Below, piece by piece: positions 11,872-54,648 of a stretch of DNA of 64,000 nt. Position 1 is the first letter of the stretch. Each line of letters starts with the position of its first letter. The DNA is from Escherichia coli. GTDB taxonomy: Bacteria; Pseudomonadota; Gammaproteobacteria; Enterobacterales; Enterobacteriaceae. Both the position numbers and the translations under genes were made by a program. The notes beneath the pieces were generated by a model. It made no database searches and was not told the origin of the DNA. It worked only from the letters and a program-made list of their open reading frames with translations. The DNA lies in assembly GCF_003991155.1 (NCBI RefSeq), contig NZ_CP031293.1, one strand, 5' to 3'.

Positions 11872-13044
11872 TCAGGCCTTATGGTGGAAATAATCACTCA
11901 GCCGGGAAAACATGCTGCCTTCCCCGACAGATTCCAGGGTAACCAGCGGCCAGTGCGCCACCTGTTTATCACGGTCGTAAAGTTCAATTTCCCCTACCCG
12001 CTGATGGGCGCTAATTGGCGCGGTGAGTTCTTTACCATCAAGGGTATATTTGGCTTTGATATGTGGAATTTCGGCTTTCGGTAGCACCATCCAGAACTCT
12101 TGTTCCGTTCCCAGGGCGATATTTTCTTTATCGCCATACCAGATGCGTTCCGTACCAACCTTTTTCCCACGGTGCAAAATTTGCACCGTAGTAAAGTTTT
12201 GTTGCCCCCAACGCAGTAATTTTCTTGCCTCTTCCTCACGACCTTTTGCGCTGTCAGCCCCCATTACCACTGCAATGAGACGACGCTGCCCATCTACAGC
12301 CGAAGCAATGAGATTAAACCCGGCACCAGAAGTATGACCCGTTTTCAGGCCGTCAACATTCATGGTTTTATCCCACAATAACCCGTTACGGTTTTGCTGG
12401 GTGATACCGTTCCAGGTGAGGCTTTTCTCACTGTACATATGATAAAACTCGGGCTCGCCGTGGATGATAGCGCGAGAAAGCACAGCTAAATCATAAGCCG
12501 AGCTATGCTGGCCAGGTGCATCCAGACCATGCACTGTTTCAAAATGCGTATCCTTGAGATGCAGCTTCTCGGCATAGTTGTTCATCATTTCAACAAACTG
12601 CCGTTGCCCACCGGCAATATAGTCAGCCAGAGCAACACAAGCGTCATTTCCGGAATCCACAATTAAACCACGGCTTAAATCACGTACCGATACGCGATCG
12701 CCCTCTTTCAGAAACATCAGTGAAGAACCGACAAACACCGGATTATCTTTCGCCCACGCATCGCGCCCCACGGTGACAATATCGTCTGGCGTAATGCGAT
12801 GACTATCGATAGCACGATCCACGACATAGCCCGTCATCAGCTTTGTCAGGCTGGCGGGATTGCGCTGTTGATGCTCATTACCCGCGGTGAGAATCTGACC
12901 GGTGGTGTAATCCATCAATACCCAGGACCCGGCATGAATCTCTGGAGGCTGAGGTGAAAAAGGAATGTTTTCCGCCGCAAAACCAGACGATAAATTAAAA
13001 ACGAACAAAGAAGCAGCAATAATAAGACGGCGTTTCAACAGCAA
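11872..13044 (-). CDS. dacD: D-alanyl-D-alanine carboxypeptidase DacD (PBP6b)
   Basis: 390 aa with signal peptide and SLTK/SGN motifs. Confidence 0.9.
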   Translation of the reverse strand: MLLKRRLIIAASLFVFNLSSGFAAENIPFSPQPPEIHAGSWVLMDYTTGQILTAGNEHQQRNPASLTKLMTGYVVDRAIDSHRITPDDIVTVGRDAWAKDNPVFVGSSLMFLKEGDRVSVRDLSRGLIVDSGNDACVALADYIAGGQRQFVEMMNNYAEKLHLKDTHFETVHGLDAPGQHSSAYDLAVLSRAIIHGEPEFYHMYSEKSLTWNGITQQNRNGLLWDKTMNVDGLKTGHTSGAGFNLIASAVDGQRRLIAVVMGADSAKGREEEARKLLRWGQQNFTTVQILHRGKKVGTERIWYGDKENIALGTEQEFWMVLPKAEIPHIKAKYTLDGKELTAPISAHQRVGEIELYDRDKQVAHWPLVTLESVGEGSMFSRLSDYFHHKA

Positions 13045-13238
13045 ACCCTCAGGTGTTTCAAATAGCTGTTCTTTTTACGGAAATACTTATGAACTGGCTG
13101 GAATAAAGTGCAAGAAAATGTGACTACTATCTCATTTTTATCTGACATGATCTGTTGCCACTCGCTGCCAAATTGTCGCGCTAAAGCTGATTAGCACGGT
13201 GATATTTGATACTCTGGCAGACAGCAGAAACAACGGAT

Positions 13239-13306
13239 TTAACCTAATGATGAATGACGGTAAGCAACAATCTACCTTTTTGTTTCACGATTACGCGCAA
13301 CACCCC
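13239..13306 (+). pseudogene. sbcB: Displaced native 5' end of sbcB (first ~16 codons) left at prophage left junction
   Basis: ATGATGAATGACGGTAAGCAACAATCTACCTTTTTGTTTCACGATTACG encodes MMNDGKQQSTFLFHDY, then diverges into phage DNA and stops. Confidence 0.6.
13275..13287. repeat. attL core (13-bp identity with attR)
   Basis: TTTCACGATTACG identical to 53257-53269; flanks are imperfectly similar. Confidence 0.6.
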
Positions 13307-13348
13307 TGAGAACCGCCATAAACAAGGGTTTCATGATTTGTGATTTTA

Positions 13349-13375
13349 GTTTGGTACGCAATTTGGTACACAACA
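13349..13375. promoter_or_regulatory. Candidate integrase arm-type binding sites (left arm)
   Basis: Tandem TTTGGTACGC / TTTGGTACAC motifs, same motif repeated near the right junction. Confidence 0.4.
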
Positions 13376-13814: not shown

Positions 13815-16292
13815 CTACATTGCCATTAATATAAACATAGCCAATTCGTCATAACGAATTCCGTAGCGTCCACCTGCTTTTTTTACAAGAATCATATTTC
13901 CTGTTTTATATTGAGAATAAATTTTCTCACCTGTATCAGGATCTGTGCTCTCTTCAGTTATCACCTCTTCATCCCATACGTCTGGCCATTCATCGTAACA
14001 CCAAAAAGCATATTGCTCAGGATTTAAACCATGCTTTCTAAGAATATCTCCTACGGTTTGAGCGCCAACTCCAAAATGATACCTTGATAACTCCAATCCT
14101 TTAAAATTAATCGACTCATTAAACCTGAACTTGCATATAATTCCCTTTATTTCCAGCGCAGCATCACGCTCTGCCTGAGTAATGTCATATATTGTTTTAA
14201 GTGTTTCATCTGATGTGCTTATAGTCCCGGATGCAGAATAAATCTGAGCCCATCTAAATGATGGTGCACCAAGAGATTTGCTGTTATCAATAATTGGTGA
14301 AAAATTACCTTTAATGGCAATATTTCCAGAGTCGCCGAATATATTAATAACTGTAGAGTCATCACCATGGTTTTTTACGCTTAAGTTTCTTGATAAAATA
14401 TTTATATCTTTGTTATACCCACTAACATTAATCCATCTTTTACCATCAATGTGATACCCGTAAATATTTCCGTTTGATTGTTCGTCAGGTGACTCTCTAA
14501 GAACAATAGCATCTACTCCAGACGACCATTGTATTTTTGTATCTGTAGGCCTCCAGTTCTTTATAATGAACGAACCATCAGTAAACTCCGTTTTTATTTG
14601 TCTATTGTCTACAAATGCGTCTCTTGGTTTAAACTCACTTGTGTTAACGCTGCTCTGAAGATCAGAAGCAAAAAATCTAAGATTTCCTGTATAACCCTGA
14701 GTCTCGGTCAGGTTATACGCAATCATAATTCCATTTTCAAACTCAGATGATGTTATTTTAACATCACGGCAATCACCAAAAATGCAATTTCCTTTATCAA
14801 ATGTTGTTTGAGCTTTGAATTTATCAAACCTTAAATTACGAACAGGGAAACCATCAACCTCTAATGCAAAGGATGCATGAAGGCCAAAGTATTCTGATGG
14901 CTTACCTGATGTATGATCAAGAGTAGTGGCTACTGTATTCTCAAAAACAGTCCCGCTAAAATTATTACCAATTGACGGAAACCTGATTACACTTATTGTA
15001 CCTTGTATTTCAGGAGAAATACCAGATAGTGTGATGTTAGTTCCATCAAATGATGCATCTGAATACGTATATACTGATTCACTGCCAGCAATTTTAAACT
15101 GTTTAACTGAAGTTATTCTCATCGACTTTTTATGTTTAAATGTCACTGAGCTTTCAGTATTACTTACAAGATCAATCTGAGGGCTATTCCTTATCGCGAT
15201 TCCTGACTGGACATAAACGTTATTAAAGTGCGTTTTTTCAGGATTTCCCTTCATTGAAAGGCTCCCGTCATTTTCTGTCAGTAGTAGTCCTTTTACCCTC
15301 CAATAGCCGACAATCTGTACGTTATCAATAACTGAATCACAGCTATCGTATACATGCAACCCTATATCCCAGTTATCACCCAATGAATAAGAATCAGGGT
15401 TATTGTATCCTTCAATACCATTTTTACTTACCATTATTCTCAGATTGCGTAACTGTGATGCCCTGTTGATACTAACAGCTACGCTCATGGCTTTTGGTGT
15501 AGCAGGAGTAACACCTACAGAATCTTCATTCGTAAACTCAGTGAACTTACAAGATATCCCTTCAACAATTTTAACCGGTCTTTCATTAGAGATGTTAAAA
15601 AAATATTTGTTTTTTTCTCCATCACCAGTAAATACAAGATGGGTTCCTTTACTCCAACTTTTTAATAATCTTTCAGGCGCTGGTCTATATGTATCCCAAT
15701 AATCAATGCCAGATCCAACCAGTGAACACCCCTCAGGAATGTTAATATTCTTCTTGATGATGCATATTCCTTCCGGAATTGTTATAACCGACCTTCCAGA
15801 GTTTAAAGCTTTAATAAAAGCATCTGAATCATCTGTTTCCCCATCTATTTTTGCTCCCCACCCTCTAACATCTCCACAATCTCTCCATCGTGCCATCTGC
15901 AACTCAGGATATTTTTTAGCGCCATCTGGATCTTCTAATTGCTGCCGTAGCTGATCGGGGTCATACTTCAGCACATTAGGAAAATAGAACTGCTGCGCAC
16001 CATATGCATCATAAACAGCCATAGAATGGCCTTGCACAGTTACAAACTTGGCTATTTGCCCGTTATATACCGGGTAACCAGCAGCGTTAATGATGATTGG
16101 TTGCGAAACAGGAACGTGAGAGCCATCTTCGTTCTCCACATAAACCTGAATCTGGTTTTCAGGATTTACAGGGTCAGTGTCAATTTTACCGATATAAATT
16201 TTGCCATTGGCAACCGCTTTAAAAGAACGTGCCATAGTGAAGAGTTGAGAAGGCATACTCACTACAACATTGGCATTTATCGAATCTGTCAT
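13815..16292 (-). CDS. Tailspike: P22 gp9-like head-binding N-domain, divergent receptor-binding domain, C-terminal intramolecular-chaperone-like domain
   Basis: 825 aa; N-terminus resembles P22 tailspike; SDETLK motif about 150 aa from C-terminus. Confidence 0.85.
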
Positions 16293-16391: not shown

Positions 16392-17321
16392 TCAGTAGTT
16401 ATGTACTGAAGGAGGTAATTCTTTATTCTTAAGTCTCATCCATGCGGAAAGATTCGTTGGTCCGTCTGGCTCATTGATATCAACATCTCGTGTGTGATTG
16501 ATTAAAACGTCTCTCGCCATTCCGATAACATACGAGAACTCATGACCATAGTCGTAGCATCTGCCGGAATAGTTCGATTGAATTTGTTTTAATGCCGGAT
16601 ACAGTTCGCGGAATAACGCCTGTGAGCGGTTGGCATAATCCCATAACCATACAAGGCTGTTTGCTTCTTTTGCAGAAAGCTCGTTGGTTTTCTTCTCTTG
16701 TTTGCCAATGAACTCACCTTCAAGCGGAACGCGAGCAGCAAGTGACAGTGCTTCGGTAAACTGCTCATCACTGATTTCTTTGTACGAACATCCAAAATGG
16801 GATTTCAGTGACGACCACATGGTGATCATCGCCTTCGCCTGTTTTTCTTTTGGCAGAGACTGACCGCGACTCATGACGAGTTGTTTAATGGCTTCCTGCT
16901 GTTCAGTGGTGATTTTACCCGGCAACGCCTTTTTAGCTTTGCGTGGGTTAACTACATGGCCTTTAGTCCAGTACTCGTAGAGCACATCGTCACACTCTTC
17001 CTGATACTGGATTACCTTGTCGCGGATTTCAGGGCGGACTTTGTTTGGACTGATGGTTTGCAGCCAGCCAGCAAGTTTGCGAAGTGCCAAACAAATAATC
17101 TCACGGCACTGTTCATCACCAGGAAGCTGCATTGTGATTTTCACAATGGAGGTTTTAAACCGTTGCTTTATTTTCGTAAACTGTGAAGCCCAATCCATAC
17201 CCATACCTTCAACGATAGGTTTCATTGGGGTGTACGGCTCACCGTTGTGATTGACGACATAAAGCTCTGCGCCGTGGAATGGCACGTTGATAGTAGATAC
17301 TGCTGTTGCTATACTTTTCAT
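16392..17321 (-). CDS. ant: Antirepressor Ant (P22 immI)
   Basis: 309 aa, [24 protein letters not shown]22 Ant-like. Confidence 0.85.
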
Positions 17322-18234: not shown

Positions 18235-18720
18235 ATGAAAAAATCACTATTAATTATCCCGCTTCTGCTGGCTGGATGCGCAAAAGTAAGTGACTACCAA
18301 GCAAGTTGCGAACAACGCTATCCAAAGCTTAGTGATATGGCTAATTGCCTTGATGCCAGCGTGAAGAACGACTCACGCATGGCATCAGCACCAACACCTA
18401 AGCTGTATGTCCTTGCTGCGAAGATGCTCGGGCAAGGTGTCGATGAAGGCAAGATAAGTGACGCACAGGCAAGACTTGAGCTTCAGAATCTTTATGTTCA
18501 ATTACAAAGCCAAGAACAAGCCCAACAAATAGCGCAAAGCCAAGCATTCCAGCAGGCTTTATTGAATTATCAGGCTGTAAACACAATGCAAGCGATCGAG
18601 CAAAAAGCGCGCCAGCCTGTTATAACTCAACCTTACCCAACACGCGTTGACACATATACAAACTGCAATTCAGGATTTGGAAACACCGTCACATGCAACA
18701 GTAGCAGCAACATTAGATAA
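18235..18720 (+). CDS. Lipoprotein of unknown function (lipobox LLAGC), Gln-rich C-terminal half
   Basis: 161 aa; MKKSLLIIPLLLAGC signal and lipobox; downstream of mnt in same orientation. Confidence 0.5.
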   Translation: MKKSLLIIPLLLAGCAKVSDYQASCEQRYPKLSDMANCLDASVKNDSRMASAPTPKLYVLAAKMLGQGVDEGKISDAQARLELQNLYVQLQSQEQAQQIAQSQAFQQALLNYQAVNTMQAIEQKARQPVITQPYPTRVDTYTNCNSGFGNTVTCNSSSNIR

Positions 18721-40252: not shown

Positions 40253-41629
40253 TCATACGTCCGCCCCTTGTGCATATCGTCTGCCACGCGCAGCAGGCGC
40301 ATTTGATGCTGTGCAAATCTGTCTGGCTTCATCCTGGTCACATGCAACAAAGTGTCCGTTACAGAACCGCTGGTAAACCGTACCAAGTGAGCCAAAACGG
40401 TTTTTCGTCACGATGATTTCAGCAAATGGCGCGGCGCTACTGTTCTCGTCATATACCGCTTCCCGATAGAGCATGATGATTGAGTCTGCGTCCTGCTCAA
40501 TGCTTCCTGAATCACGCAAATCTGCGTTTGTCGGGCGTTTGTTTGGTCGCTTCTCAACATCGCGCGAAAGCTGACTCAGGGAGATAACAGGCGTTTTCAG
40601 GTCTTTCGCCATCGCCTTCAGGCTTCCGGAGATGTGAGCAATTGCGAGGTCGTTGCGGTCTGCTTTCGGCTTCTCAATCAGGCCAAGATAATCCGCCATG
40701 ATTAGAGACAGGTTTGGATTTTCCTGTTTATGCCGTTCTGCGATTGAGCGTATTTCTTCGACCGATAACCGCGAGGCATCGACTACCCATACATCCAAAT
40801 CTGCAAGCTGACTCATGCCGTTAGCAACACGCGCCCAGCCTTCGTCATCCATCGATGCAGGATTTCGCAGTACGCTAACCGACATCCTCCCGGCGTTGGC
40901 AATGCTTCGCTCTGCAATCTGCAATGCGCTCATTTCCATCGAGAAAATCAACACTCCGCGCCGGACGTCAGAACCGGGAATAACGCGGCTTGCAACGCCT
41001 TCAGCAATCTTCAGCGCCAGCTCGGTTTTCCCCATACCAGGACGAGCGGCGATAATCACCAGGTCTTCCGCGTTCATCCCTCCGGTGATGGCGTCAAGTT
41101 CTTCGATTCCGGTCTTCAGGGTATCTGACTCTTCTCCGTTCCTCAGACGCCTGTCAAGCGTGTCAGTGTAGTCAGTGATGATTTCCCCTAACCGTACAGG
41201 TTTAACCTCGTCACGGGGCTTTCTGATGGCTGAAAGACGCTTTACAAGCTCGTCCATCGCCTGACTCGATGTATCGATGGTTCCGCTCTGAATTGGTTCA
41301 CGCATTTCATCCATGATTTCCAGCACCAGACGGCGGTGATAGTTATCCGCGACCATTCCGGCATATCCTTTCAGGTTTGCGGCACTCGGGCAGTTTTTGC
41401 TGGTCATCAGGATTGACGTGAAATGCTCCTCTCCGCACGCCTCGGCAACCATCAGCGCGTCGATTAGGTTTCTGTTTCTCGCCTGCTTGCGGATAACCTC
41501 GAAGGCTTTCCGGTAGAGCGGAATTGAAAACGCTTCCGGCTCCAGTGTTGCCAGAACGTCGCTGGCGGTTGGAGTTAATCCACCAATCAGCAGACCGCCG
41601 ATAACGCTCGCTTCGATATCCTGTCTCAT
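40253..41629 (-). CDS. Replicative DnaB-like helicase (P22 gene 12-like)
   Basis: 458 aa, Walker A GMGKT and DnaB C-terminal motifs. Confidence 0.9.
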
Positions 41630-42573
41630 GCAATCCCCCTGTCTGCAAACTTCCCTTCCCGTACTCCCGTTAACGAATCTTCCCTCAGCAGGTAATCAAA
41701 ATCTGCCGTCCATCCCGTGTCGTTGTCTCCGAAGTAAAACGGCTTGGCCTGATGCACAAACGCCCTGACATACGCTCTGAAACCGTCCACGTTTGGCGTT
41801 TTCAGTTGCGGGATGATTTTCTTCAGGCGGCGTTTGCGTTTCTCGTTGACCGCAACAGCGTGTGGCAGTCTGTCACCGACTTCGGTGTTGTAAGCGTTCA
41901 GGAAGGATTCGTAGTCGATTCGTTCTGCCTTGCGACGTTCAGGTTTAACCTGCCCATCGCCTCCCCCATTGGGGGGTAGGGGGGTATTATTTATATTCTT
42001 GTTAATACCTTCTTGTTCATGATGTGCGGTTGTTTGTGCGGCTTCATGTGCGCTTTCATGTGCGGCATGTACGCTGAATGCCGCGCCATTACTGGCTTCA
42101 TCATGTGCGGCATCATGTGCGGTTGTTTGTGCGGCTTCATGTGCGGGTGAACTGTCCATTTTTTGAGCATATTCATGGTAATTTGTGATGGTTATCACAC
42201 GACCTTTTTGCTTCTCCCCATCAATGGAGATCATCCCCTCTTTCACAAAAACCTGAAGCATCCGCTCAACCTGATCACGGCTTGCCGGCTTGCCATGCCT
42301 GTCGCATAACTGAAGACCTAAATCAGCTGCTGTCACAACCAGTTGACCGGGTTGCAGATGCCATTCATGACCTTTGAAATTCGCTTTGTATGGCTTTCTG
42401 GCGGCATTCAGGAGAAGGTTTTCCCACAGGGTGCGAAGATAAACATCTTTCGCCCATGACTGTTTCAGAATGCTCCGGTACAACGGAATGTAACCAGTTT
42501 TCTGGTTCTCCATCCTGTTGCTCCTGCGCTCGTGTGCGGCGCTGAAATCGTAGATTTTTGCTGTATTGCTCAT
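41626..42573 (-). CDS. Replication initiator (P22 gene 18 / O-like) containing ori iterons
   Basis: 315 aa; repeat-encoded His/Ala-rich tract; overlaps helicase start. Confidence 0.8.
42018..42150. repeat. Replication-origin iterons inside the initiator gene
   Basis: Repeated (T)CATGTGCGG units; ~30-bp block ATGTGCGGTTGTTTGTGCGGCTTCATGTGCG present twice. Confidence 0.6.
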
Positions 42574-43538: not shown

Positions 43539-44189
43539 ATGAAAACTCAATTGATGGGAGAGCGCATTCGCGCTCGGAGAAAAGAACTCAAGATCAGGCA
43601 GGCCGCACTTGGAAAGATGGTCGGCGTGTCTAATGTTGCCATATCTCAGTGGGAACGCTCTGAGACAGAGCCAAATGGAGAGAATCTTCTCGCCCTGGCT
43701 AATGCGTTGAAGTGTTCCCCTGACTATCTGATGAAAGGAGAGGAAAGTCTTTCAAACATTGCCTATCACAGTAGGCATGATCCAAGAGGGTCATACCCTC
43801 TGATTAGCTGGGTGAGCGCAGGATGCTGGATGGAAGCTGTAGAACCATATCATAAGCGTGCAATAGATAACTGGTACGATACAACCGTAGACTGTTCAGA
43901 AGATTCGTTTTGGTTGGATGTGAAGGGAGACTCAATGACGGCTCCGGCCGGTCTCAGTATCCCTGAAGGAATGATAATACTCGTCGATCCTGAAGTAGAG
44001 CCGCGTAACGGGAAACTGGTAGTTGCAAAGCTCGAAGGAGAAAACGAGGCAACTTTCAAGAAGTTAGTTATTGATGCAGGCAGGAAGTTTCTAAAACCAC
44101 TTAACCCACAATATCCGATGATCGAGATCAACGGAAACTGCAAAATCATCGGCGTAGTTGTCGATGCAAAACTAGCAAACCTTCCATAA
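43539..44189 (+). CDS. c2: C2 repressor (P22-type, LexA-like autocleaving)
   Basis: 216 aa, HTH N-domain and S24 peptidase C-domain. Confidence 0.95.
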   Translation: MKTQLMGERIRARRKELKIRQAALGKMVGVSNVAISQWERSETEPNGENLLALANALKCSPDYLMKGEESLSNIAYHSRHDPRGSYPLISWVSAGCWMEAVEPYHKRAIDNWYDTTVDCSEDSFWLDVKGDSMTAPAGLSIPEGMIILVDPEVEPRNGKLVVAKLEGENEATFKKLVIDAGRKFLKPLNPQYPMIEINGNCKIIGVVVDAKLANLP

Positions 44190-44795: not shown

Positions 44796-45095
44796 ATGAC
44801 AGTAGTCATTACATATCTAGCTGACGATAACGCCAGAAATCGCCGCAGAGCACGCAGGCAGGCTCAACGTGAACAGGCAATGCAAGAACAGCGACTGGCG
44901 CGAAAGATTGCGCTAAAGCTCTCTGGTTGCGTCAGAGCAGACAAAGCAGCATCACTCGGAAGCCTTCGCTGCAAGAAGGCAGAAGAAGTCGAGAGTAAAC
45001 AGAACCGTATTTACTACCGCAAGCCACGCAGTGAAATGGGTGTGACTTGTGTTGGTCGCCAGAAAATGAAATTAGGCAGCAAACCACTTATTTGA
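44796..45095 (+). CDS. N-like antitermination protein (P22 gene 24-like)
   Basis: 99 aa, arginine-rich motif NARNRRRARRQAQREQ. Confidence 0.7.
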   Translation: MTVVITYLADDNARNRRRARRQAQREQAMQEQRLARKIALKLSGCVRADKAASLGSLRCKKAEEVESKQNRIYYRKPRSEMGVTCVGRQKMKLGSKPLI

Positions 45096-45106
45096 GAGGA
45101 ATTAAT

Positions 45107-45730
45107 ATGTCATCAATCCGCTTAACTACGAGAATGAAAGAGAAAATCGCTCGTAACGCTTTAATTAAGTCTGGGGTTTTCACTGAACTTGAAGAAGTAA
45201 CAAAGTTAAAGAACCAGCTTGCACTTGACGCCAGAGTTATTGCGTTTGGCGGTAAAAAGAAAACTGAGGAAGTGGATCAGTTATCATCCAGGTTAGTAGC
45301 TATAAGTGAAGAACTTGAAAAGATGGGATGTTCATTTTACTCATACGATGTTCGTTCTACTTCAATTTATCTGACTGTATCTGGCAGAAGGGTTGGATGG
45401 CATTCATATGGGAAAGACGGCAACGGCGAAGATATATTGCTCCCTACTCCAACCAAAGATAAATGCATGTTTGATGCAGAACACGAAATAACAAAAAGGT
45501 TTGATGAAATCTGCGCATTGCAACAAAAACTTGAAGCCAAGAAAAAGGATATCGAATCAAATGTATGGGCTGCTTTGAACTCAGTCACAACAGTTAAGCG
45601 ACTTATTGAAGTTTGGCCTGAAAGCAAAGAATTGCTACCAAAAGAAGCAGACAAAGCAAGTACAGCACTTCCTGCTTTACGGGTAGAAGATTTGAATAAG
45701 ATGATTGGACTTCCTTCCGAGTCCGCATAG
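45107..45730 (+). CDS. Hypothetical early-left protein
   Basis: 207 aa from ATG with GAGAGGA RBS; soluble, no recognised motif. Confidence 0.45.
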   Translation: MSSIRLTTRMKEKIARNALIKSGVFTELEEVTKLKNQLALDARVIAFGGKKKTEEVDQLSSRLVAISEELEKMGCSFYSYDVRSTSIYLTVSGRRVGWHSYGKDGNGEDILLPTPTKDKCMFDAEHEITKRFDEICALQQKLEAKKKDIESNVWAALNSVTTVKRLIEVWPESKELLPKEADKASTALPALRVEDLNKMIGLPSESA

Positions 45731-45903
45731 TCGGCCTTTATTTTTGGCACTAACAACAGAATAAACACTGCACTGTGTATTCATTCCAACGAGTGAATAC
45801 ACGGAGCAATGTCGCTCTTAACTAAACAGGAGCCGACTTGTTCTGATTATTGGAAATCTTCTTTGCCCTCCAGTGTGAGGGCGATTTTTTTGATGGAGGA
45901 TAT

Positions 45904-46872
45904 ATGAGTGAAGTAACAGATTTAGTTGTTATTGAAAAAGCAAATGCAATGACTGTATTTCAGTCTGCCGACCAGATTGAAGAAATCCTTCAAAGGGTTG
46001 AACGTGAAGTTATGTCCTTTGTGCCTGATATCACAACGGCAAAGGGCAGAAAGGAGATCGCTTCTCTGGCGTATAAAGTTGCGCAGACGAAAACATATCT
46101 CGATGGTCTTGGCAAAGACCTTGTTGCTGAACTGAAGGAAATTCCAAAGCTAATTGATGCCAACCGCAAGACAGTGCGCGATCGCCTTGATGAGCTGAAA
46201 GCCAAGGCACGCCAGCCTCTTACTGATTATGAGGAAGAACAGGCGCGGATTAAAGCCGAAGAAGAAGCTAAGGCAGCAGCTGAAGCTCTCGCAAAGCAAA
46301 TTGAGTCTGACCATGAAATAGCTATTTTGATGGATCGCGAATTTGACCGCCAAAGAGAAGAGGCAAGACTCAAAGCGGAGCAGGAAAAGCGAGAGCATGA
46401 AGAACGCTTAAAAAGAGAAGCTGAAGAGAAAGCCAGAGCAGAAGCCGAAGCAAAGGCAAAAGCCGAAATTGAAGCAGCAGCAAGGCGAGAAGCAGAAGCT
46501 AAGGCCGCAGCGGAACGTGCAGAGCGTGAACGCATTGAAGCCGAGCAACGAGCACAGCGCGAAGCAAAAGAGGCAGCAGAACGAGCTGAAAGAGAAAAGC
46601 AGGCGGCAATTGAAGCAGAACGCCGAAAAGCACAGGAGGAGGCTGAACGAATCCGGCGCGAGGCTGAAGCAAAAGAGCAAGCCAGAATAGCAGAAGAAAA
46701 AAGAATCAAGGACGAAGAAGAGCGTAGAGCAAAGGATAAAGCTCACCGGAAAGAAGTAAATAACAAAATACTTGCTGACCTTATCAAGGTTGGCGCATCA
46801 GAAGATGTTGCTAAAAATATCATAACAGCCATCGTAAAAGGCGAAGTATTCGCAACAAAAATAACCTACTAA
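45904..46872 (+). CDS. Coiled-coil protein with TolA domain-II-like Ala/Glu/Lys/Arg repeats
   Basis: 322 aa from ATG with GGAGGA RBS; ~180-aa low-complexity tract. Confidence 0.5.
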   Translation: MSEVTDLVVIEKANAMTVFQSADQIEEILQRVEREVMSFVPDITTAKGRKEIASLAYKVAQTKTYLDGLGKDLVAELKEIPKLIDANRKTVRDRLDELKAKARQPLTDYEEEQARIKAEEEAKAAAEALAKQIESDHEIAILMDREFDRQREEARLKAEQEKREHEERLKREAEEKARAEAEAKAKAEIEAAARREAEAKAAAERAERERIEAEQRAQREAKEAAERAEREKQAAIEAERRKAQEEAERIRREAEAKEQARIAEEKRIKDEEERRAKDKAHRKEVNNKILADLIKVGASEDVAKNIITAIVKGEVFATKITY

Positions 46873-46895
46873 TAAACCAACATAAGGAACCACCC

Positions 46896-47027
46896 ATGAT
46901 TTACGCAATCGCGGGAGGCGCTCGCATGGGTGCCTTCCAACTAAATGAATCTTTACTTGAACGAATCACCCGTAAATTACGTGACGGATGGAAAAGAGTT
47001 GAGGTCTTATTATGCGCAATGAAATAG
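46896..47027 (+). CDS. cIII: CIII-like protease inhibitor
   Basis: 43 aa, ESLLERITRKLRDGWKR core like lambda CIII. Confidence 0.65.
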   Translation: MIYAIAGGARMGAFQLNESLLERITRKLRDGWKRVEVLLCAMK

Positions 47028-47164
47028 CCATCAATCACCAGATGCTTCGTGCTGCACAGAACAAAGCAGTAATAGCCAGATTTATTGGTGATTCAAAAAT
47101 GTGGCTTGAAGCAAATAAAGCAATGAAATCAGCTATCAACCTTCCGTGGTATCGCAGGAAATGA
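47012..47164 (+). CDS. kil: Kil-like host division inhibitor
   Basis: 50 aa, ARFIGDSKMWLEA resembles lambda Kil motif. Confidence 0.55.
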   Translation: MRNEIAINHQMLRAAQNKAVIARFIGDSKMWLEANKAMKSAINLPWYRRK

Positions 47165-47331
47165 GTTTTACAGATAACTGGTCAGACGAAGAATTCATTC
47201 GTCAGATGAAAGAATTAGTCGGTAACGAAGGAGATATGCATGTCACTTGCAACCACAGTGAAGGAGAGCAAGTTACAGAGACGCATGTACACGCAGCAGG
47301 CGTTAATGTATCGCCAGAAGGGAGATCGTGA
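47161..47331 (+). CDS. Small hypothetical protein, ATGA-coupled to kil
   Basis: 56 aa from MSFTDNW; overlaps alternative ORF 47240-47410 in another frame. Confidence 0.3.
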   Translation: MSFTDNWSDEEFIRQMKELVGNEGDMHVTCNHSEGEQVTETHVHAAGVNVSPEGRS

Positions 47332-47410
47332 AGGTGTTCGCGTATTTTTAAATGCGGCAAAGACTGAAGTATTAAATCAGCGTTATTTCCTTGGGCCGTG
47401 TCCATTCTGA
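47240..47410 (+). CDS. Small hypothetical protein immediately upstream of annealing protein gene
   Basis: 56 aa from MSLATTVKES, AAGGAG RBS, stop 9 nt before next ATG. Confidence 0.3.
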   Translation: MSLATTVKESKLQRRMYTQQALMYRQKGDREGVRVFLNAAKTEVLNQRYFLGPCPF

Positions 47411-47418
47411 GGTGAATT

Positions 47419-48126
47419 ATGGATTTGAACAAATTCGATGAACCATTCAGCCCTGAAGATATCGAATGGCGAATACAGCAAAGCGGTAAAACACGCGATG
47501 GCAAGGTGTGGGCTATGGTGCTGGCTTATGTCACGAACCGGGCAATCATGAAACGCCTGGACGATGTTTGCGGCAAAGCAGGATGGCGCAATGAATACCG
47601 CGATATTCCCAACAACGGCGGAGTTGAATGCGGCATATCAATCAAGATTGATTCCGAATGGGTAACCAAATGGGATGCTGCTGAAAACACGCAGGTAGAA
47701 GCCGTCAAAGGTGGTCGTTCCGGTGCAATGAAGCGTGCTGCCGTTCAATGGGGAATCGGTCGGTATCTGTATAACCTTGAGGAAGGTTTCGCACAAACAT
47801 CTCTCGATAAAAAGCAGGGATGGCACAGGGCAAAACTGAAGGATGGAACAGGATTTTACTGGCTCCCTCCATCGCTGCCGGGATGGGCAATCCCAGCATC
47901 AGATAACAAACCATCACCAGAAAATACCAACCAGAAATCTCCATCGGTTGACTGCGAACAAATCCTGAAAGACTTCAGCGATTATGCATCAACAGAAACT
48001 GACAAGAAAAAACTCATCGAGCGTTATCAGCGTGACTGGCAATTAATGGCTGGCAACGAGGAGGCGCAGGCTAAATGCGTTCAGGTAATGAACATCAGAG
48101 TTAACGAACTAAAACAGGCGGCATAA
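47419..48126 (+). CDS. Rad52-family single-strand annealing protein
   Basis: 235 aa; AAVQWGIGRYLY motif. Confidence 0.65.
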   Translation: MDLNKFDEPFSPEDIEWRIQQSGKTRDGKVWAMVLAYVTNRAIMKRLDDVCGKAGWRNEYRDIPNNGGVECGISIKIDSEWVTKWDAAENTQVEAVKGGRSGAMKRAAVQWGIGRYLYNLEEGFAQTSLDKKQGWHRAKLKDGTGFYWLPPSLPGWAIPASDNKPSPENTNQKSPSVDCEQILKDFSDYASTETDKKKLIERYQRDWQLMAGNEEAQAKCVQVMNIRVNELKQAA

Positions 48127-48633
48127 ATGGCAAGCAGAGGCGTAAATAAGGTGATTATCCTTGGTCGGGTAGGACAAGACCCGGAAGTTCGATACTCACC
48201 ATCAGGAACAGCGTTCGCTAACCTGACAATAGCCACGTCAGAACAATGGCGAGATAAAAATACTGGCGAGCAAAAGGAATTAACTGAATGGCATCGTGTT
48301 GCTGTATCCGGGAAACTGGCTGAGGTCGTGGGGCAGTATGTGAAAAAAGGTGATCAGATTTATTTCGAGGGAATGCTGAGAACCAGAAAGTGGAAAGACC
48401 AGTCAGGGCAAGACCGTTACACAACCGAGGTTCATGTCGGAATTAATGGCGTGATGCAAATGCTTGGCGGCATTGGCGACAGCAAACAACAAGCAGCCAG
48501 CAGGCAATCACAGAAGCCACAGCAGCAATCATCACCAGCACAACACAACGAACCTCCGATGGATTTTGACGACGATATACCCTTTGCACCAGTAACTCTC
48601 CCCTTCCCTCGTCACGCTATTCACGCAATTTAA
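48127..48633 (+). CDS. ssb: Single-stranded DNA-binding protein
   Basis: 168 aa; OB-fold N-domain, Gln-rich linker, acidic DFDDDIPF tail. Confidence 0.9.
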
Positions 48634-48646
48634 TCAGGAGAAAATC

Positions 48647-48940
48647 ATGCCAGCGCCTCTGTATGGTGCGGATGACCCGCGCCGCTGTTCCGGCAATTCC
48701 GTATCGGAGGTGCTGGATAAATTCAGGAAAAACTACGACCTGATAATGTCGCTACCGCAGGAAACGAAAGAGGAAAAGGAATTTCGCCATTGTATATGGC
48801 TTGCAGAGAAAGAAGAACGCGAGCGAATTTACCAGACATCAATCCGACCATTCCGCAAAGCCACATATACCCACTTCCCTGAAATTGACCCGCGCCTGCG
48901 TAATTACCGCTCACGCTATGGCGCTATCAGTAATGACTGA
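48647..48940 (+). CDS. Hypothetical protein
   Basis: 97 aa ORF in early-left operon. Confidence 0.4.
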
Positions 48941-49114
48941 GGAATTTACCATGAGAGGACTTGCATACAATCCCGGCATTCTTCCGGCAGAAATGATTAT
49001 TCGCCAACGTGTAAAGCCAATGCCATCGAGAGAGGAATTGCTTAAGAGAAATTCTTTTCCATCAGTAAATCAAAACAAATATCTGAATGCGATGTGGCGT
49101 AAAGGAGGTAAGCA

Positions 49115-49741
49115 GTGAGCAAGATTGATTATCAAAAGCTTCGTGAAATCGCTGAAAAAACAAAAATTGCTGGTGAAACACCCGTAATGCCTTTCGATCA
49201 GCGAATTAATGCGCTTAACGATTTTATGAAGCACTTTTCGCCAGATATCGCGCTGGCATTGTTGGATGAACGGGAAAGAAACCTGCAATACATCAAACGC
49301 CGCGACCAGGAGAACGAGGAAATTGCGCTAACGGTAGGGAAGCTGAGAGTTGAGCTGGAAGGCAAAGACAGCAAAATAGCCAATCTTACCGCCGAACGCG
49401 ATGCTCTTCGTGAAGGTGAGATGGGCGACGCTAGGCATAGCAACACACGGGCCGCAGCTGATATCTACTTCCAACTGGTCGAGGAGTGCGAAATTCCTGC
49501 TGGCGGATCTCTGGTCGAGTACGTTGACGATATGCGCGAGAAGCTGGAAGCCGCAGAGAAGCGCATTGCTGAGCTGGAGTTGCTGGAGGTTGTGCTTCCG
49601 CAATGCTATAGCATGTTGCATCGCGTCGATTTTGACGAGCCTTACCACACTGAAATGGTTTACAGGCAGCATCAGGTTCTTGAGGCACTGCACAACGCTG
49701 GAATAAACGTCACCGAAGCAGGTAAAGGAGAGGCATCATGA
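49115..49741 (+). CDS. Ead/Ea22-like protein
   Basis: 208 aa, central coiled coil. Confidence 0.5.
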
Positions 49742-50241
49742 GCACTATCACAAGAGAATGGCTGCAGCAGGCTATCAACGATTATGAAAGCGTTCGTGAT
49801 GAGCTTCCTTTCGGGCTTGATGATTACCAGGGGAATATCCTGGCTGCCCTGCGTATCGCACTGGCATCGCTGGAAGCAGAGCCGGTGGCGTGGAAGGTAA
49901 CATTCACGCAAATTGACCGTGAATATAACACGTTCACTGGTATGTATTCTGACAAAGCAGAAGTCGAACGGTGGGTGCGGCTGCATAAAGCATGTAATTT
50001 TCGGGCAGATATAACACCGCTTTATACCGCCAAGCCAGTGCCGGTAACTCCGGATGGTTGGATAAGCTGTAGTGAGCGAATGCCGAACGACGCGCAGTGG
50101 TGCGTAGTGAACACAGAATACGGGTATTACGTGCAATGCTGGTCTGAAGGTCAAGGGTGGCTTGGTGATGATATCAGCATCCCTGAATGCGATGTAATCA
50201 ATTGGATGCCGCTACCAGAACCACCGCAGGAGATGAAGTAA
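49738..50241 (+). CDS. DUF551-domain protein
   Basis: 167 aa; C-terminal WISCSERMP...NWMPLPEPP. Confidence 0.5.
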   Translation: MSTITREWLQQAINDYESVRDELPFGLDDYQGNILAALRIALASLEAEPVAWKVTFTQIDREYNTFTGMYSDKAEVERWVRLHKACNFRADITPLYTAKPVPVTPDGWISCSERMPNDAQWCVVNTEYGYYVQCWSEGQGWLGDDISIPECDVINWMPLPEPPQEMK

Positions 50242-50525
50242 TGGACTCCTTCGCGAAATATACGATTATTGACTGGATTGCCTTCCTTCAGGTTTTGCTC
50301 ATCTGGTTTTATATGGCTTACAGGAGTGGACAGTGGATTGTCAGTGTAGCCTGTAGCAGGGGATGGCGTTGGTGGAACCGAAAGAATAAAAAAGCACTGG
50401 CCTTGGATTCGTTTTACGAAGCATTCAATCTTAACAGCCTTCAGCCTGGTTCTGTCATTGTAGTCACCACTCAAAGCGGCATGACGATACAAATTCACAA
50501 GCCAAAGGAGGAAGGTCGTGGCTAA
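50241..50525 (+). CDS. Hypothetical small membrane-associated protein
   Basis: 94 aa from ATG overlapping upstream stop (TAATG). Confidence 0.35.
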   Translation: MDSFAKYTIIDWIAFLQVLLIWFYMAYRSGQWIVSVACSRGWRWWNRKNKKALALDSFYEAFNLNSLQPGSVIVVTTQSGMTIQIHKPKEEGRG

Positions 50526-50799
50526 CCTGCAACTTGCCGTCAAAGGTGAATACTTCGACGCCATGATTCGCGGGGAGAAAACGGAAGAGTATCGCCTGTG
50601 CAATGACTACTGGAATAAACGCCTCGTTAATCGTAAGTATGACCGCCTGATTATCACAAAGGGATATCCGAAGCGCGACGATTCCAGCCGCAGAATTGAC
50701 GTCCCGTATGACGGATATGAAATCAAGACAATCACACATCCGCACTTCGGCGATAAACCGGTAACGGTATTCGCGATAAAGGTGAATATCAATTGCTAA
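50518..50799 (+). CDS. DUF3850/ASCH-like protein
   Basis: 93 aa, EYRLCNDYWNKRL pattern. Confidence 0.45.
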   Translation: MANLQLAVKGEYFDAMIRGEKTEEYRLCNDYWNKRLVNRKYDRLIITKGYPKRDDSSRRIDVPYDGYEIKTITHPHFGDKPVTVFAIKVNINC

Positions 50800-50912
50800 A
50801 TTAGTAGCATAGCATAAAGATGCTTGCATTAATGAAGTGTGTATAATAATGCCTCATCAATAGTAAACTACTGAAATAGCAAAAAAAATGCATATTAAAG
50901 AGGATTCGAAAA

Positions 50913-51104
50913 TTGAAAATGTTCATGCAAATAGACAGACGCATAGATATTAATGGCAATTCATACTTAGTTAGATGCGAAGAGAGGCCTAACGGTGAGT
51001 GGCGTGTATATGATATTGACCGTAAGATCAATATCAGCACCATGAACAAAGACACTGCCTTTGATGAATGGAAAGCTGAAGCTAAAAAACAACATAATTC
51101 GTAA
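50913..51104 (+). CDS. Hypothetical protein
   Basis: 63 aa ORF in AT-rich stretch. Confidence 0.3.
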   Translation: MKMFMQIDRRIDINGNSYLVRCEERPNGEWRVYDIDRKINISTMNKDTAFDEWKAEAKKQHNS

Positions 51105-51183
51105 AATTACAAAAACCCTAACCAATTGATGGATTTCTTTTATCTGAACTCGCTACGGCGAGTTTTGTTTTATGGAGATGATA

Positions 51184-51352
51184 AATGCACTTCCGAGTCA
51201 CAGGAGAATGGAATGGAGAGCCATTCAACAGAGTTATCGAAGCGGAGAACATCAACGACTGCTACGACCACTGGATGATATGGGCGCAGATAGCACATGC
51301 AGACGTAACCAATATTCGAATTGAAGAACTGAAAGAACACCAAGCCGCCTGA
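51184..51352 (+). CDS. Small hypothetical protein followed by terminator
   Basis: ~55 aa (MHFRVTGEWNGEPF); hairpin CCGCCTGATGGCGG plus T-run after stop; coordinates +/-1. Confidence 0.3.
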
Positions 51353-51375
51353 TGGCGGTTTTTTGGGGGTAGTAG

Positions 51376-51567
51376 ATGGCTGCAATTCACATTGTATCAA
51401 TAACATGCAATGCAATTCAGATAGTTGCTTGCATTATCTTTGTTTTCTCAATCATTCGCTCCAGACGATATTCTCCAGCAATTAACCGACATCCTGCACA
51501 AGTTGAAGCCGTCAGGATGGCTATAGAGTTACGAAATGAGATGAATAAGGCATTAATGGAGATGTAG
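51376..51567 (+). CDS. Small hydrophobic hypothetical protein
   Basis: 63 aa ORF with N-terminal hydrophobic stretch. Confidence 0.25.
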   Translation: MAAIHIVSITCNAIQIVACIIFVFSIIRSRRYSPAINRHPAQVEAVRMAIELRNEMNKALMEM

Positions 51568-51691
51568 AAACCATTCACTGACAAACATTAAGAGTGGAAA
51601 TAAAGAAATCACACCGCCTCACACTCGATGAGGCCTGTTCATATCTGATAGAGCCGCTATATGGCGGTTTCTTTTTGCCTGGAGAATTAAG

Positions 51692-51883
51692 ATGACCGAT
51701 ACCAGCCTGATTCCTGAGAAAGAAGTGATGAACAAGCTCGGTGTTTCATCACGTCAGACAATCTGGAACTATACCAAACGGCACGGATTTCCGAAGCCAG
51801 TCAGAACCCACCCCAAATCATACCTTCGTGAAGCTGTTGAAGGGTGGATTCTTAACGGTGGCGTTAATCAGAAATGCTCCTGA
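51692..51883 (+). CDS. xis: AlpA-family excisionase / DNA-binding regulator
   Basis: 63 aa with HTH (LGVSSRQTIWNYTKRHGFPKP); adjacent to integrase. Confidence 0.7.
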   Translation: MTDTSLIPEKEVMNKLGVSSRQTIWNYTKRHGFPKPVRTHPKSYLREAVEGWILNGGVNQKCS

Positions 51884-53042
51884 TGTGCCAGAACAATTTA
51901 TCAGCGTGAAGCTCATACGCTTTGCGCTGAGCCTCTATCCAGTCGTGTTTATTGTATACGGACATTATCCCGCCAAGTTCATGACCGAGCATTCGCTCAG
52001 TAACATGAGGCTCGACATTCATCTCGGACAGACGTGTAACAAGCGTTCTTCTGAAATCGTGTGTTCGCCAGTAACCTAGATCCATCCCTCCCCTTATTCT
52101 ATTTACGAATCGGTTGGCTGCAGCGATGCTGATCGGTTTGTTTATGTCTTCTCCAGGGAAAAGAACATCATTGTACGTTGTCATGGCCTTTTCGAGGAAA
52201 GGCTTAATTTGTTCGAAGATTGGACGGCGGATAGCATTACCCATCTTGCTATGCTCTTTCGGTACGGTCCATACGTTTTCCAGCAGGTCAAATTCTGTCT
52301 TTTTTGCCAGCCTAAGCTCTGAGAGCCTCGCCCCCCACAGCATAAGCATCTGATGAAGTAGCTTATTTGACGTAGACGCACGGCTTCTTTCAATAGCAAG
52401 CCAAATCTTAGCCAGTTCGTGATACGACAGTACACGATCCCCTACCTCAGCGCGGGAGCCGAAGTCCCTTGGTTGGATGCTCATAATTGCGCAACTATCT
52501 ATCAACTGACGCCGCATGCACCAACTTATTGCTGATCTTAGTTGACTTAGCACCTGCCTTGCTCGGCGTGGATTATCTCTTTCTTCTTCGGTAAGCAGGT
52601 CAACCCATTGCTTAACCGTGATAGAAGATGCCGGACGATTAGGGAAGGCGTCATGCATGCGCTTCATAACCGTTGATCGGTAAAGTGCCTGGGTCTTTTC
52701 TCTGAGAGTTGTAGAGACGTAGTTGTCGAACCAGTAGTCGAGACACTGGGCGACCGTCATGGAGTTCTCCACCTTCTCTTCAAAATAAGTGCGTGGATCC
52801 GTTCCTGAGAAATAGAGCTTTCGCAAGTCAGCAGTGATCTGTCTGGCATCCTTCAAAGACATGGATGGGTATCGACCAAGCCCAAGTCGATTAGGCTTGC
52901 CATGCCAGCGATAGCGGTACTGGAACTGGATGACCCCCTTCGGTGAAATTCGTACGCTGAGGCCATCGGCATCAGCCACTTCTTGTGGGCCCGAATATGG
53001 TTTACCATAAATAGTACGAAGTTTTGTGTCGCTTATAGCCAT
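51864..53042 (-). CDS. int: Tyrosine site-specific integrase
   Basis: 392 aa; C-terminal HDFRRT...LGH catalytic region; next to right junction. Confidence 0.9.
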   Translation of the reverse strand: MAISDTKLRTIYGKPYSGPQEVADADGLSVRISPKGVIQFQYRYRWHGKPNRLGLGRYPSMSLKDARQITADLRKLYFSGTDPRTYFEEKVENSMTVAQCLDYWFDNYVSTTLREKTQALYRSTVMKRMHDAFPNRPASSITVKQWVDLLTEEERDNPRRARQVLSQLRSAISWCMRRQLIDSCAIMSIQPRDFGSRAEVGDRVLSYHELAKIWLAIERSRASTSNKLLHQMLMLWGARLSELRLAKKTEFDLLENVWTVPKEHSKMGNAIRRPIFEQIKPFLEKAMTTYNDVLFPGEDINKPISIAAANRFVNRIRGGMDLGYWRTHDFRRTLVTRLSEMNVEPHVTERMLGHELGGIMSVYNKHDWIEAQRKAYELHADKLFWHIRSISD

Positions 53043-53050
53043 AAATAATA

Positions 53051-53097
53051 TTTGGTACGCTCAGAAATAATGGTTTGGTACACATCTGGTACACAAT
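53051..53097. promoter_or_regulatory. Candidate integrase arm-type binding sites (right arm)
   Basis: Repeated TTTGGTACGC / TTTGGTACAC / TGGTACACAA motifs between int and core. Confidence 0.4.
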
Positions 53098-53223
53098 ATC
53101 ACATGGACAACAGCGCACAGTAAACAACTATATTTGACGTTCGTAGACATACTCAGGTGAAAAAATGGTTGTTTTTCGAGTTATAACAGACAGTTAATTA
53201 ACTACAGTGGACAATGCTAGACA

Positions 53224-54648
53224 ATGACAGACACAGATAAACAACCTACCTTCCTCTTTCACGATTACGAAACCTTTGGAACGCACCCCGCGTTAGATCG
53301 CCCTGCACAGTTCGCAGCCATTCGCACTGATAACGAATTCAATGTCATCGGCGAACCCGAAGTCTTTTACTGCAAGCCCGCGGATGACTATTTACCCCAG
53401 CCTGGAGCAGTATTAATTACCGGTATTACCCCGCAGGAGGCACGGGCGAAAGGAGAAAACGAAGCCGCGTTTGCCGCCCGTATTCACTCGCTTTTTACCG
53501 TACCGAAGACCTGTATTCTGGGCTACAACAATGTGCGTTTCGACGACGAAGTCACACGCAACGTTTTTTATCGTAATTTCTACGATCCTTACGCCTGGAG
53601 CTGGCAGCATGATAACTCGCGCTGGGATTTACTGGATGTTATGCGTGCCTGTTATGCCCTGCGCCCGGAAGGAATAAACTGGCCTGAAAATGATGACGGT
53701 CTACCGAGCTTTCGCCTTGAGCATTTAACCAAAGCGAATGGTATTGAACATAGCAACGCCCACGATGCGATGGCTGATGTGTACGCCACTATTGCGATGG
53801 CGAAACTGGTAAAAACGCGTCAGCCACGCCTGTTTGATTATCTCTTTACCCATCGTAATAAACACAAACTGATGGCGTTGATTGATGTTCCGCAGATGAA
53901 ACCCCTGGTTCACGTTTCCGGAATGTTTGGGGCATGGCGTGGCAATACCAGCTGGGTGGCACCGCTGGCGTGGCATCCTGAAAATCGCAATGCCGTAATT
54001 ATGGTGGATTTGGCAGGAGACATTTCGCCATTACTGGAGCTGGATAGCGACACATTGCGCGAGCGTTTATATACCGCAAAAGCCGATCTTGGCGATAACG
54101 CCGCCGTTCCGGTTAAGCTGGTGCATATCAATAAATGTCCGGTACTGGCCCAGGCGAATACGCTACGCCCGGAAGATGCCGACCGACTGGGAATTAATCG
54201 TCAGCATTGCCTCGATAACCTAAAAATTCTGCGTGAAAATCCGCAAGTGCGTGAAAAAGTGGTGGCGATATTCGCGGAAGCCGAACCGTTTACGCCTTCA
54301 GATAACGTGGATGCACAGCTTTATAATGGCTTTTTCAGTGACGCCGATCGTGCAGCAATGAAAATTGTGCTGGAAACCGAGCCGCGTAATTTACCGGCAC
54401 TGGATATCACTTTTGTTGATAAACGAATTGAAAAACTGTTGTTCAATTATCGAGCGCGCAACTTCCCGGGGACGCTGGATTATGCCGAGCAGCAACGCTG
54501 GCTTGAGCACCGCCGCCAGGTCTTCACGCCAGAGTTTTTGCAGGGCTACGCTGATGAATTGCAGATGCTGGCACAACAGTATGCCGATGACAAAGAGAAA
54601 GTGGCGCTGTTAAAAGCGCTTTGGCAGTACGCGGAAGAGATTGTCTAA
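53224..54648 (+). CDS. sbcB: Exodeoxyribonuclease I; first ~11 codons supplied by the prophage
   Basis: 474 aa; N-terminus MTDTDKQPTFLFHDYETFG differs from the remnant MMNDGKQQSTFLFHDY at attL. Confidence 0.9.
   Translation: MTDTDKQPTFLFHDYETFGTHPALDRPAQFAAIRTDNEFNVIGEPEVFYCKPADDYLPQPGAVLITGITPQEARAKGENEAAFAARIHSLFTVPKTCILGYNNVRFDDEVTRNVFYRNFYDPYAWSWQHDNSRWDLLDVMRACYALRPEGINWPENDDGLPSFRLEHLTKANGIEHSNAHDAMADVYATIAMAKLVKTRQPRLFDYLFTHRNKHKLMALIDVPQMKPLVHVSGMFGAWRGNTSWVAPLAWHPENRNAVIMVDLAGDISPLLELDSDTLRERLYTAKADLGDNAAVPVKLVHINKCPVLAQANTLRPEDADRLGINRQHCLDNLKILRENPQVREKVVAIFAEAEPFTPSDNVDAQLYNGFFSDADRAAMKIVLETEPRNLPALDITFVDKRIEKLLFNYRARNFPGTLDYAEQQRWLEHRRQVFTPEFLQGYADELQMLAQQYADDKEKVALLKALWQYAEEIV
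53257..53269. repeat. attR core (13-bp identity with attL)
   Basis: TTTCACGATTACG inside sbcB codons 12-16. Confidence 0.6.

Follow-up and report, generated by a model that had tools for sequence, protein, structure and literature searches.

The DNA upstream of sbcB in this Escherichia coli chromosome is very probably the integrase-proximal end of a prophage that combines the type 2851 attachment module with a P22/Sf6-like body, with sbcB rebuilt from phage codons and the phage arm serving mainly as recombination machinery. The window, by which we mean the whole 64,000-nt stretch analysed, is an E. coli/Shigella chromosome segment as judged by gene order and matches, and holds yeeA, sbmC, dacD, the prophage, sbcB, yeeD, yeeE, plaP, yeeY, yeeZ and the his operon, in that order. 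The prophage is P22-like, ~40 kb in length (about 13296–53256) and inserted at the 5' end of sbcB (Table 1). In this prophage, a P4-family tyrosine integrase has recombined the attP core TTTCACGATTACG with an identical 13 bp at codons 13–17 of native sbcB, with the phage carrying an ATG and ten in-frame codons just upstream of its core, and the native promoter and first 16 codons have been stranded at the other junction. Since the ATG and in-frame codons are phage-borne, integration rebuilds an intact 474-aa exonuclease I (ExoI) rather than truncating it.

The 13-mer core occurs exactly twice in the window, at 13283 and 53257. By an arithmetic estimate ~30 repeated 13-mer pairs are expected by chance in 64 kb, so the repeat alone is not significant and the junction context decides. 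Both junctions were aligned to the attP of free phage mEp234 and, as attB, to the unoccupied site of E. coli isolate FELIX_MS78. The int-side junction was composed of attP-left (2 mismatches in 240 nt against mEp234), core and attB-right, and the far junction of attB-left, core and attP-right, with its core copy lying 36 nt inside the native sbcB 5' fragment, whose ATG is at 13247. The identical 13 bp is annotated as an insertion/att duplication in phage 1717 (FJ188381) and, at the same position, as 'attachment site (type 2851)' in mEp234 (JQ182732). An earlier note on this DNA had put the core at sbcB codons 12–16, which is exact in the rebuilt frame, with codon 12 opening at 53257 and codon 16 at 53269, and the span that it marked, 53224–53271, is precisely codons 1–16. 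It had also called this junction the right one, or attR, which suits the orientation of the window but not the lambda convention, by which the int-proximal junction is attL. The Sf101 paper likewise names this junction attL, and prints the 13-bp attP core of phages 2851 and Sf101 as CGTAATCGTGAAA (PMC4159516).

Two further observations concern the sites themselves. The FELIX_MS78 attB (L003, about 690–700) has a 2-bp insertion just left of the core (TCTGAACC vs TCTACC), and sbcB of this isolate is annotated as frameshifted. Inverted core-type integrase sites were also looked for by eye; attB has GTTTC-N8-GAAAC and attP lacks the right half, and no conclusion was drawn.

In the window, sbcB (53224..54648, + strand) is an intact ORF of 474 aa that corresponds to E. 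coli exonuclease I (PF00929 and PF08411) and matches solved ExoI structures over its full length, with differences mainly in the first eight residues. The first codons had been taken in the earlier note to be phage-derived, and codons 1–11 are indeed carried in the attP of free mEp234, where 53224..53256 is identical; the reading frame is thus kept open across the junction by codons carried in a free phage genome, as in a gene-restoring attP. PGAP places the sbcB start at the same codon in a lysogen and annotates the gene as intact, and the peptide predicted from this phage-encoded start in lysogens would be TDTDKQPTFLFHDYETFGTHPALDR. Over the 17 nt that adjoin the core on its coding side, phage and native sbcB (native 13266–13282) agree at 13, with Phe and Leu retained by synonymous changes in the phage-borne codons, and in the junction alignment the two sequences showed no resemblance across the core or ahead of the ATG. 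This one-sided similarity fits coding constraint or descent from an sbcB gene, and not a symmetric core-site requirement. By what is known of ExoI, its catalytic Asp and Glu in the first exonuclease motif come from the core and the first codon of host origin, and are therefore left untouched by integration. Judged by its sequence, the occupied sbcB is rebuilt, not disrupted. The native promoter region (13045–13246) lies stranded 40 kb away at the far junction, and with its 16 codons (13045–13309) now reads into the phage arm, towards the convergent tailspike gene.

Table 1. Features of the prophage and its two junctions (positions are those of the 64,000-nt window)
Feature	Position	Strand	Remarks
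Companion junction: start and first 16 codons of native sbcB joined to phage DNA	13247..13309	+	20-aa ORF, MMNDGKQQSTFLFHDYAQHP followed by a stop
att core, int-distal copy	13283..13295	+	
Two tandem arm-type repeats, TTTGGTACGC and TTTGGTACAC, int-distal arm	13350..13371	+	55–76 nt past core
Tailspike with P22 head-binding domain	13815..16292		Int-distal prophage end; Pfam
P22-type antirepressor	16392..17321		Int-distal prophage end; Pfam
CI-like repressor	43539..44189		
Excisionase-like HTH gene	51692..51883	+	Annotation of identical mEp234_026 and ORF list
Integrase, tyrosine recombinase, 392 aa	51864..53042	-	PF13356 and PF00589; divergent from sbcB
Int-proximal attP arm (divergent int-sbcB spacer), 181 bp	53043..53223	.	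99.5% identical to mEp234 attP
Arm-type repeats TTTGGTACGC (53051), TTTGGTACAC (53074) and TCTGGTACAC (53085)	53051..53094	+	Predicted integrase sites
Candidate fourth, degenerate arm-like site TGGACA	53104..53109	+	TGAACA or TGTACA in relatives
IHF-like conserved block a.CA....AGTTAa (WATCAANNNNTTR)	53182..53198	+	Putative, from arm alignment
Phage-borne surrogate sbcB 5' end, ATG and codons 2–11 (MTDTDKQPTFL)	53224..53256	+	Replaces native MMNDGKQQSTFL
att core, int-proximal copy, TTTCACGATTACG	53257..53269	+	Encodes F-H-D-Y-(E), part of conserved exonuclease motif
Host-derived sbcB body (exodeoxyribonuclease I)	53270..54648	+	Equals attB-side sequence

The integrase of this prophage has an N-terminal PF13356 domain (Arm-DNA-bind_3; E = 4e-18) and a C-terminal PF00589 catalytic domain (E = 3e-17), and these domain-level matches place it with the heterobivalent tyrosine integrases (P4/lambda type), which combine catalytic and arm-binding domains. 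Using tblastn it was 98–99.5% identical over 392 aa to the Int proteins of mEp234, Sf101 and HK544, and both the int and xis ORFs are intact in the window prophage. As the earlier note had proposed, the DNA upstream of sbcB is all phage, since the whole 181-bp spacer is carried in the free-phage attP. Within the 64-kb window the 10-mer TTTGGTACRC has four exact matches against 0.18 expected, a count reached by none of 100 shuffles, and all four copies lie beside the two cores, two per arm. The short motif KGTACRC alone is not enriched in the window (20 vs 18.6 expected), and the enrichment is therefore confined to the 10-mer and its clustering. The copies at 53051 and 53074 precede the core by 197–206 and 174–183 nt, and a third one, degenerate (TCTGGTACAC), lies at 53085–53094; a placement of the repeats 160–210 bp upstream, as given before, is correct if measured from the core. 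The three int-proximal repeats are 9–18, 32–41 and 44–53 nt upstream of the int start codon and 130–173 nt upstream of the sbcB ATG. On the other arm the repeats start at 13350 and 13362, and are present in the mEp234 attP as well, so that five copies in all, distinct from the core, flank the cores over both attP arms.

When the arms of 14 diverged sbcB loci (described below) were aligned, the GTAC cores of the three repeats were invariant and at fixed offsets. From this and the arm-binding domain of the integrase we infer that the TTTGGTACRC repeats are integrase arm-type sites; the earlier reading of them as integrase-binding sites is strengthened to that extent, with binding itself a prediction. 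The putative IHF-like block is matched perfectly in a Pantoea locus, and the rest of the spacer is poorly conserved across the 14 arms. Integration by the related Phi24B integrase does not need IHF, and the binding sites of that integrase are unmapped (PMC7581858). On this evidence the 181-bp arm would be primarily recombination machinery, with three arm-type sites, possibly a fourth, and possibly an IHF site.

We assessed how common this junction is and found the arm fused to sbcB in 581 of 5426 complete E. coli genomes and present in 28 phage records at 97.3–100% identity. In one of these genomes, E. coli GPEC1292 (L028, 2454–2543), only the first 30 int codons are left, abutted by IS911 and IS150 fragments, with the full arm and an intact sbcB retained, and this locus is a fixed prophage remnant. 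A scan with the integrase over one genome per species gave 21 loci, and in 14 of these int is divergent from, and adjoins, a full-length sbcB, with Int 40–72% identical to that of the window. These 14 loci come from about ten other genera (Pantoea, Serratia, Rosenbergiella, Tatumella, Chimaeribacter, Rahnella, Klebsiella sp., Orbus, Gilliamella and Parendozoicomonas). In the 11 distant loci measured, 203–258 nt separate the int ATG from the conserved core motif, and an in-frame ATG, GTG or TTG stands 5–12 codons before the motif in all 14, although these codons may be phage- or host-derived. The insertion habit is thus old and widespread, and the frame is kept in all 14 diverged loci.

Other features of these distant loci were also observed. 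The int-sbcB spacer of Klebsiella sp. BIGb0407 (L018, 2390–2466) holds 11 perfect tandem 7-mers, GTGAACA on the sbcB strand, which is close to the degenerate arm-like motif TGAACA. Pseudo-starts that resemble sbcB stand before a GATTA(C/T) core in two integrase relatives located away from sbcB (L008 and L011, about 2170–2500), as an ATG ORF broken by a stop in L008 and as 'KTFYIGDY' in L011, and these may be attP-like or secondary-site junctions.

Relatives whose Int is 52–56% identical adjoin the 5' end of tRNA-Arg(CCU), the argW target, and not sbcB; they include Stx2 phage F039, Phi24B, an Erwinia locus and a Proteus locus. In two of these (L014, 497–571, and L021, 2233–2307) int was measured to lie about 194 nt from the 5' end of the tRNA gene. 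The argW-type arms carry, in phage DNA, a position-conserved outward promoter, TTGAT(T/G)-18-TAnnAT (L014, L021 and L029, 1–235), and the phage thus appears to supply the promoter of tRNA-Arg(CCU). The three GTAC repeats are common to the sbcB-type and argW-type relatives, Phi24B included; the repeats therefore go with the integrase and not with the target gene, which supports their reading as arm-type sites. Taken together, these arrangements point to an integrase clade that inserts at 5' ends and replaces the upstream region of its target. A wider reading, which we consider unlikely, is that the clade uniting the 2851 and Phi24B types captures the promoter region of its target as a rule, so that in sbcB lysogens, about one in ten E. 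coli genomes, phage DNA would fix the amount of ExoI, perhaps through integrase at the junction or through prophage induction, with effects on host recombination and repair.

As all DNA upstream of sbcB is phage DNA, sbcB can only be transcribed from phage DNA in the lysogen. Consensus scans detected no sigma-70-like sbcB promoter in 52800–53400 and no promoter in the native sbcB upstream region. Likewise, position-weight-matrix scans of both strands at both junctions gave nothing above shuffled sequence, with TGGACA-19-TATATT the best + strand candidate (-35 at 53104..53109; p about 0.24 against shuffled sequence). Phylogenetic footprinting across the 14 loci found no + strand candidate that was positionally conserved upstream of the start codon, and the only recurrent + strand matches lay inside the coding sequence or overlapped the start codon. 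A TTGA(T/A) box stands at the argW-type -35 position in Rosenbergiella, Tatumella, Orbus and Gilliamella, without a credible -10, and is absent from the window arm. sbcB does not appear among the TSS published for Shigella M90T, and the searchable literature yielded neither binding nor expression data on the type 2851 module and nothing that joins sbcB with a promoter or TSS. The native sbcB promoter escapes the same scans, and their failure to find one in the arm therefore argues neither way. The likeliest source of sbcB transcription in the lysogen would be a weak promoter within the ~120 bp of the arm nearest to sbcB.

A different explanation, which we regard as quite improbable, is that integration silences sbcB, with the rebuilt frame a by-product of an attP derived from sbcB or constrained to resemble it; ExoI-poor lysogens might favour phage recombination. 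This would agree with the lack of a recognisable phage-side promoter and of an obvious Shine-Dalgarno sequence before 53224, and sbcB is a dispensable gene. The literature, too, speaks of sbcB 'disruption' (PMC8309913). However, the native sbcB promoter is equally invisible to the scans, and an in-frame start without a stop has been kept in 14 of 14 diverged loci, when the chance of a kept frame is estimated at ~0.3 per independent lineage and such retention is unlikely over about eight lineages. Silencing also sits poorly with similarity that is restricted to the coding side and includes synonymous changes, with an intact sbcB where the prophage has decayed to a remnant, and with argW-type relatives that clearly supply a promoter to their target.

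The arm would also have to contain the promoter of the inverted int gene. Two candidates were seen on the int strand, one with -35 TTTACT, an extended TG and -10 GATATT at 53100–53095, found in the same columns in 7 of the 14 loci, and a second with -10 CATTAT at 53072–53067; neither lines up with the mapped Phi24B TSS (position derived from PMC3064807). With either candidate the int promoter would be overlapped, or closely followed, by the three repeats, so that autoregulation of int is the likeliest side effect of the repeats.

The earlier note had proposed that integrase or host factors bound at the junction could modulate sbcB transcription. In its full form this explanation has integrase, with or without IHF or Xis, acting on the arm sites and core to modulate sbcB, so that ExoI levels track the recombination state. 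All DNA upstream of sbcB is attP arm, the arm repeats are real and conserved, and an intasome joining arm and core would cover 53050–53270, including the sbcB translation start. The int gene of Phi24B, likewise inverted, is transcribed in lysogens from a mapped promoter of its own and without dependence on CI (PMC3064807). On that analogy lysogens may contain integrase, and its occupancy of the sbcB junction in them is plausible. Against this, int is the nearer target, as the repeats lie directly at its start and well away from the sbcB ATG; neither the scans nor the footprinting located an sbcB promoter overlapping the repeats; and recombination accounts for all the conserved elements of the arm. 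Regulation of sbcB by integrase is thus a plausible hypothesis with modest prior support, and one that we consider unlikely beside a role of the arm mainly in recombination.

A third possibility is that sbcB is driven mainly by read-through from the early-left operon via xis, antisense to int, with expression low in lysogeny and raised on induction. The genes on the + strand from about 45047 to 51883 point towards sbcB, with only the opposite-strand int between, and lambdoid N-type antitermination would override terminators. int (- strand) and the excisionase-like gene (+ strand) are convergent and overlap at their 3' ends by 20 nt (51864–51883), so early-left transcription through xis would run antisense to int. 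We nevertheless judge this very unlikely as the main source of sbcB transcripts, as there are terminator-like sites on the + strand at 51651–51670 and 52185–52204, and remnant strains without the operon keep sbcB intact. Furthermore, pL is repressed in lysogens, and read-through can therefore not supply basal sbcB expression.

Further observations concern gene content away from the sbcB junction. The ORF at 11872..13044 had been considered as a second integrase, and this was rejected since gene order and the annotated empty site identify it as dacD. Neither stx nor oacB was found among the prophage ORFs examined; at the far prophage end, three ORFs gave no match with PADLOC, and the ORF at 18235..18720 gave none with Pfam. 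The tailspike gene (13815–16292) has a markedly low G+C content of 0.36–0.40 against about 0.50, and its product joins the P22 head-binding domain to weak, below-cutoff Pfam matches with catalytic and chaperone domains of endosialidases, as would be expected if the receptor-binding module had been swapped. Within the ORF 41626..42573, at 42018–42145, a motif (CATGTGCGG-like) with a period of 12 nt is present in five overlapping copies, which look like replication-origin iterons. Glu/Ala-rich repeats (GAAGCAGAAGC...) are encoded at 46258–46702, within the early-left ORF 45850..46872.

The sbcB junction is already known as the type 2851 module. In the searchable literature the core and the '5' end of sbcB' are described, and no account was found there of the rebuilt codons, the arm repeats or the replacement of the promoter; among the papers listed, searches with the core and repeat sequences returned only unrelated primer matches. 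What is new is the set of 14 loci outside E. coli in which int is divergent from and adjoins sbcB, with conserved arm sites and always an in-frame start. We see this comparative finding as useful and incremental, in that it delineates a clade of integrases that replace the 5' end of their target, and whose argW branch has a clear promoter supplied by the phage. sbcB is one of the standard insertion sites for typing Shiga-toxin prophages and is usually called 'disrupted' when occupied. Roughly 10% of complete E. coli genomes have an sbcB whose start codon, N-terminus and entire upstream DNA come from the phage. If ExoI expression differs in lysogens, the recombination and repair phenotypes of many pathogenic strains would be affected. 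In addition, the comparative loci are a ready sequence set for mapping the binding sites of Phi24B-type integrases.

Comparison with known systems places the junction most closely with the type 2851 module of the Stx2c phages 2851 and 1717, mEp234, HK544, HK140 and Sf101. These share an identical core, the same insertion point in sbcB, an int-proximal arm that is 98.4–99.5% identical and an Int that is 98–99.5% identical. Every defining feature of type 2851 that can be read from sequence was found in the window, namely the core at both ends, the integrase and the composition of the junctions. The junction itself is no different from those of the type 2851 phages, while the body differs, with the tailspike and antirepressor at the far end; it is P22/Sf6-like, as in Sf101.

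Gene-restoring insertion is known from phage 21 and e14, which use the 3' end of icd, and from many phages at the 3' ends of tRNA genes. There, as here, a diverged version of the gene end that is displaced comes in with the phage, and the target stays intact. However, in those cases it is the 3' end that is replaced, with promoter and start untouched, whereas here the start codon, N-terminus and promoter region are all phage DNA. Lambda attP has the arm-type sites P1, P2 and P'1-3 as well as IHF sites, and shares with the present attP a heterobivalent integrase, three tandem int-proximal sites plus two on the opposite arm, and a short core identity. Unlike lambda, the int-proximal arm is longer here (about 215 bp) and has another repeat motif, int points the other way and would be driven by a promoter of its own within the arm, and insertion is inside a coding sequence.

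Phi24B (vB_EcoP_24B), with an Int that is 56% identical overall and more so in the N-terminal arm-binding domain, is alike in that int is inverted, with transcription directed away from the early-left operon, and converges with a Phi24B-like xis, in that three TGTAC repeats lie beside the int start, and in that insertion at the target 5' end gives the target a phage upstream region. It differs in its target, the 5' end of the tRNA gene argW with a 24-bp crossover, where the present phage uses sbcB. The mapped pInt sequence is not conserved in the window, and lysogenic int expression is known for Phi24B only. Furthermore, Phi24B has a clear outward TTGATT-18-TATTAT promoter, which the window arm lacks.
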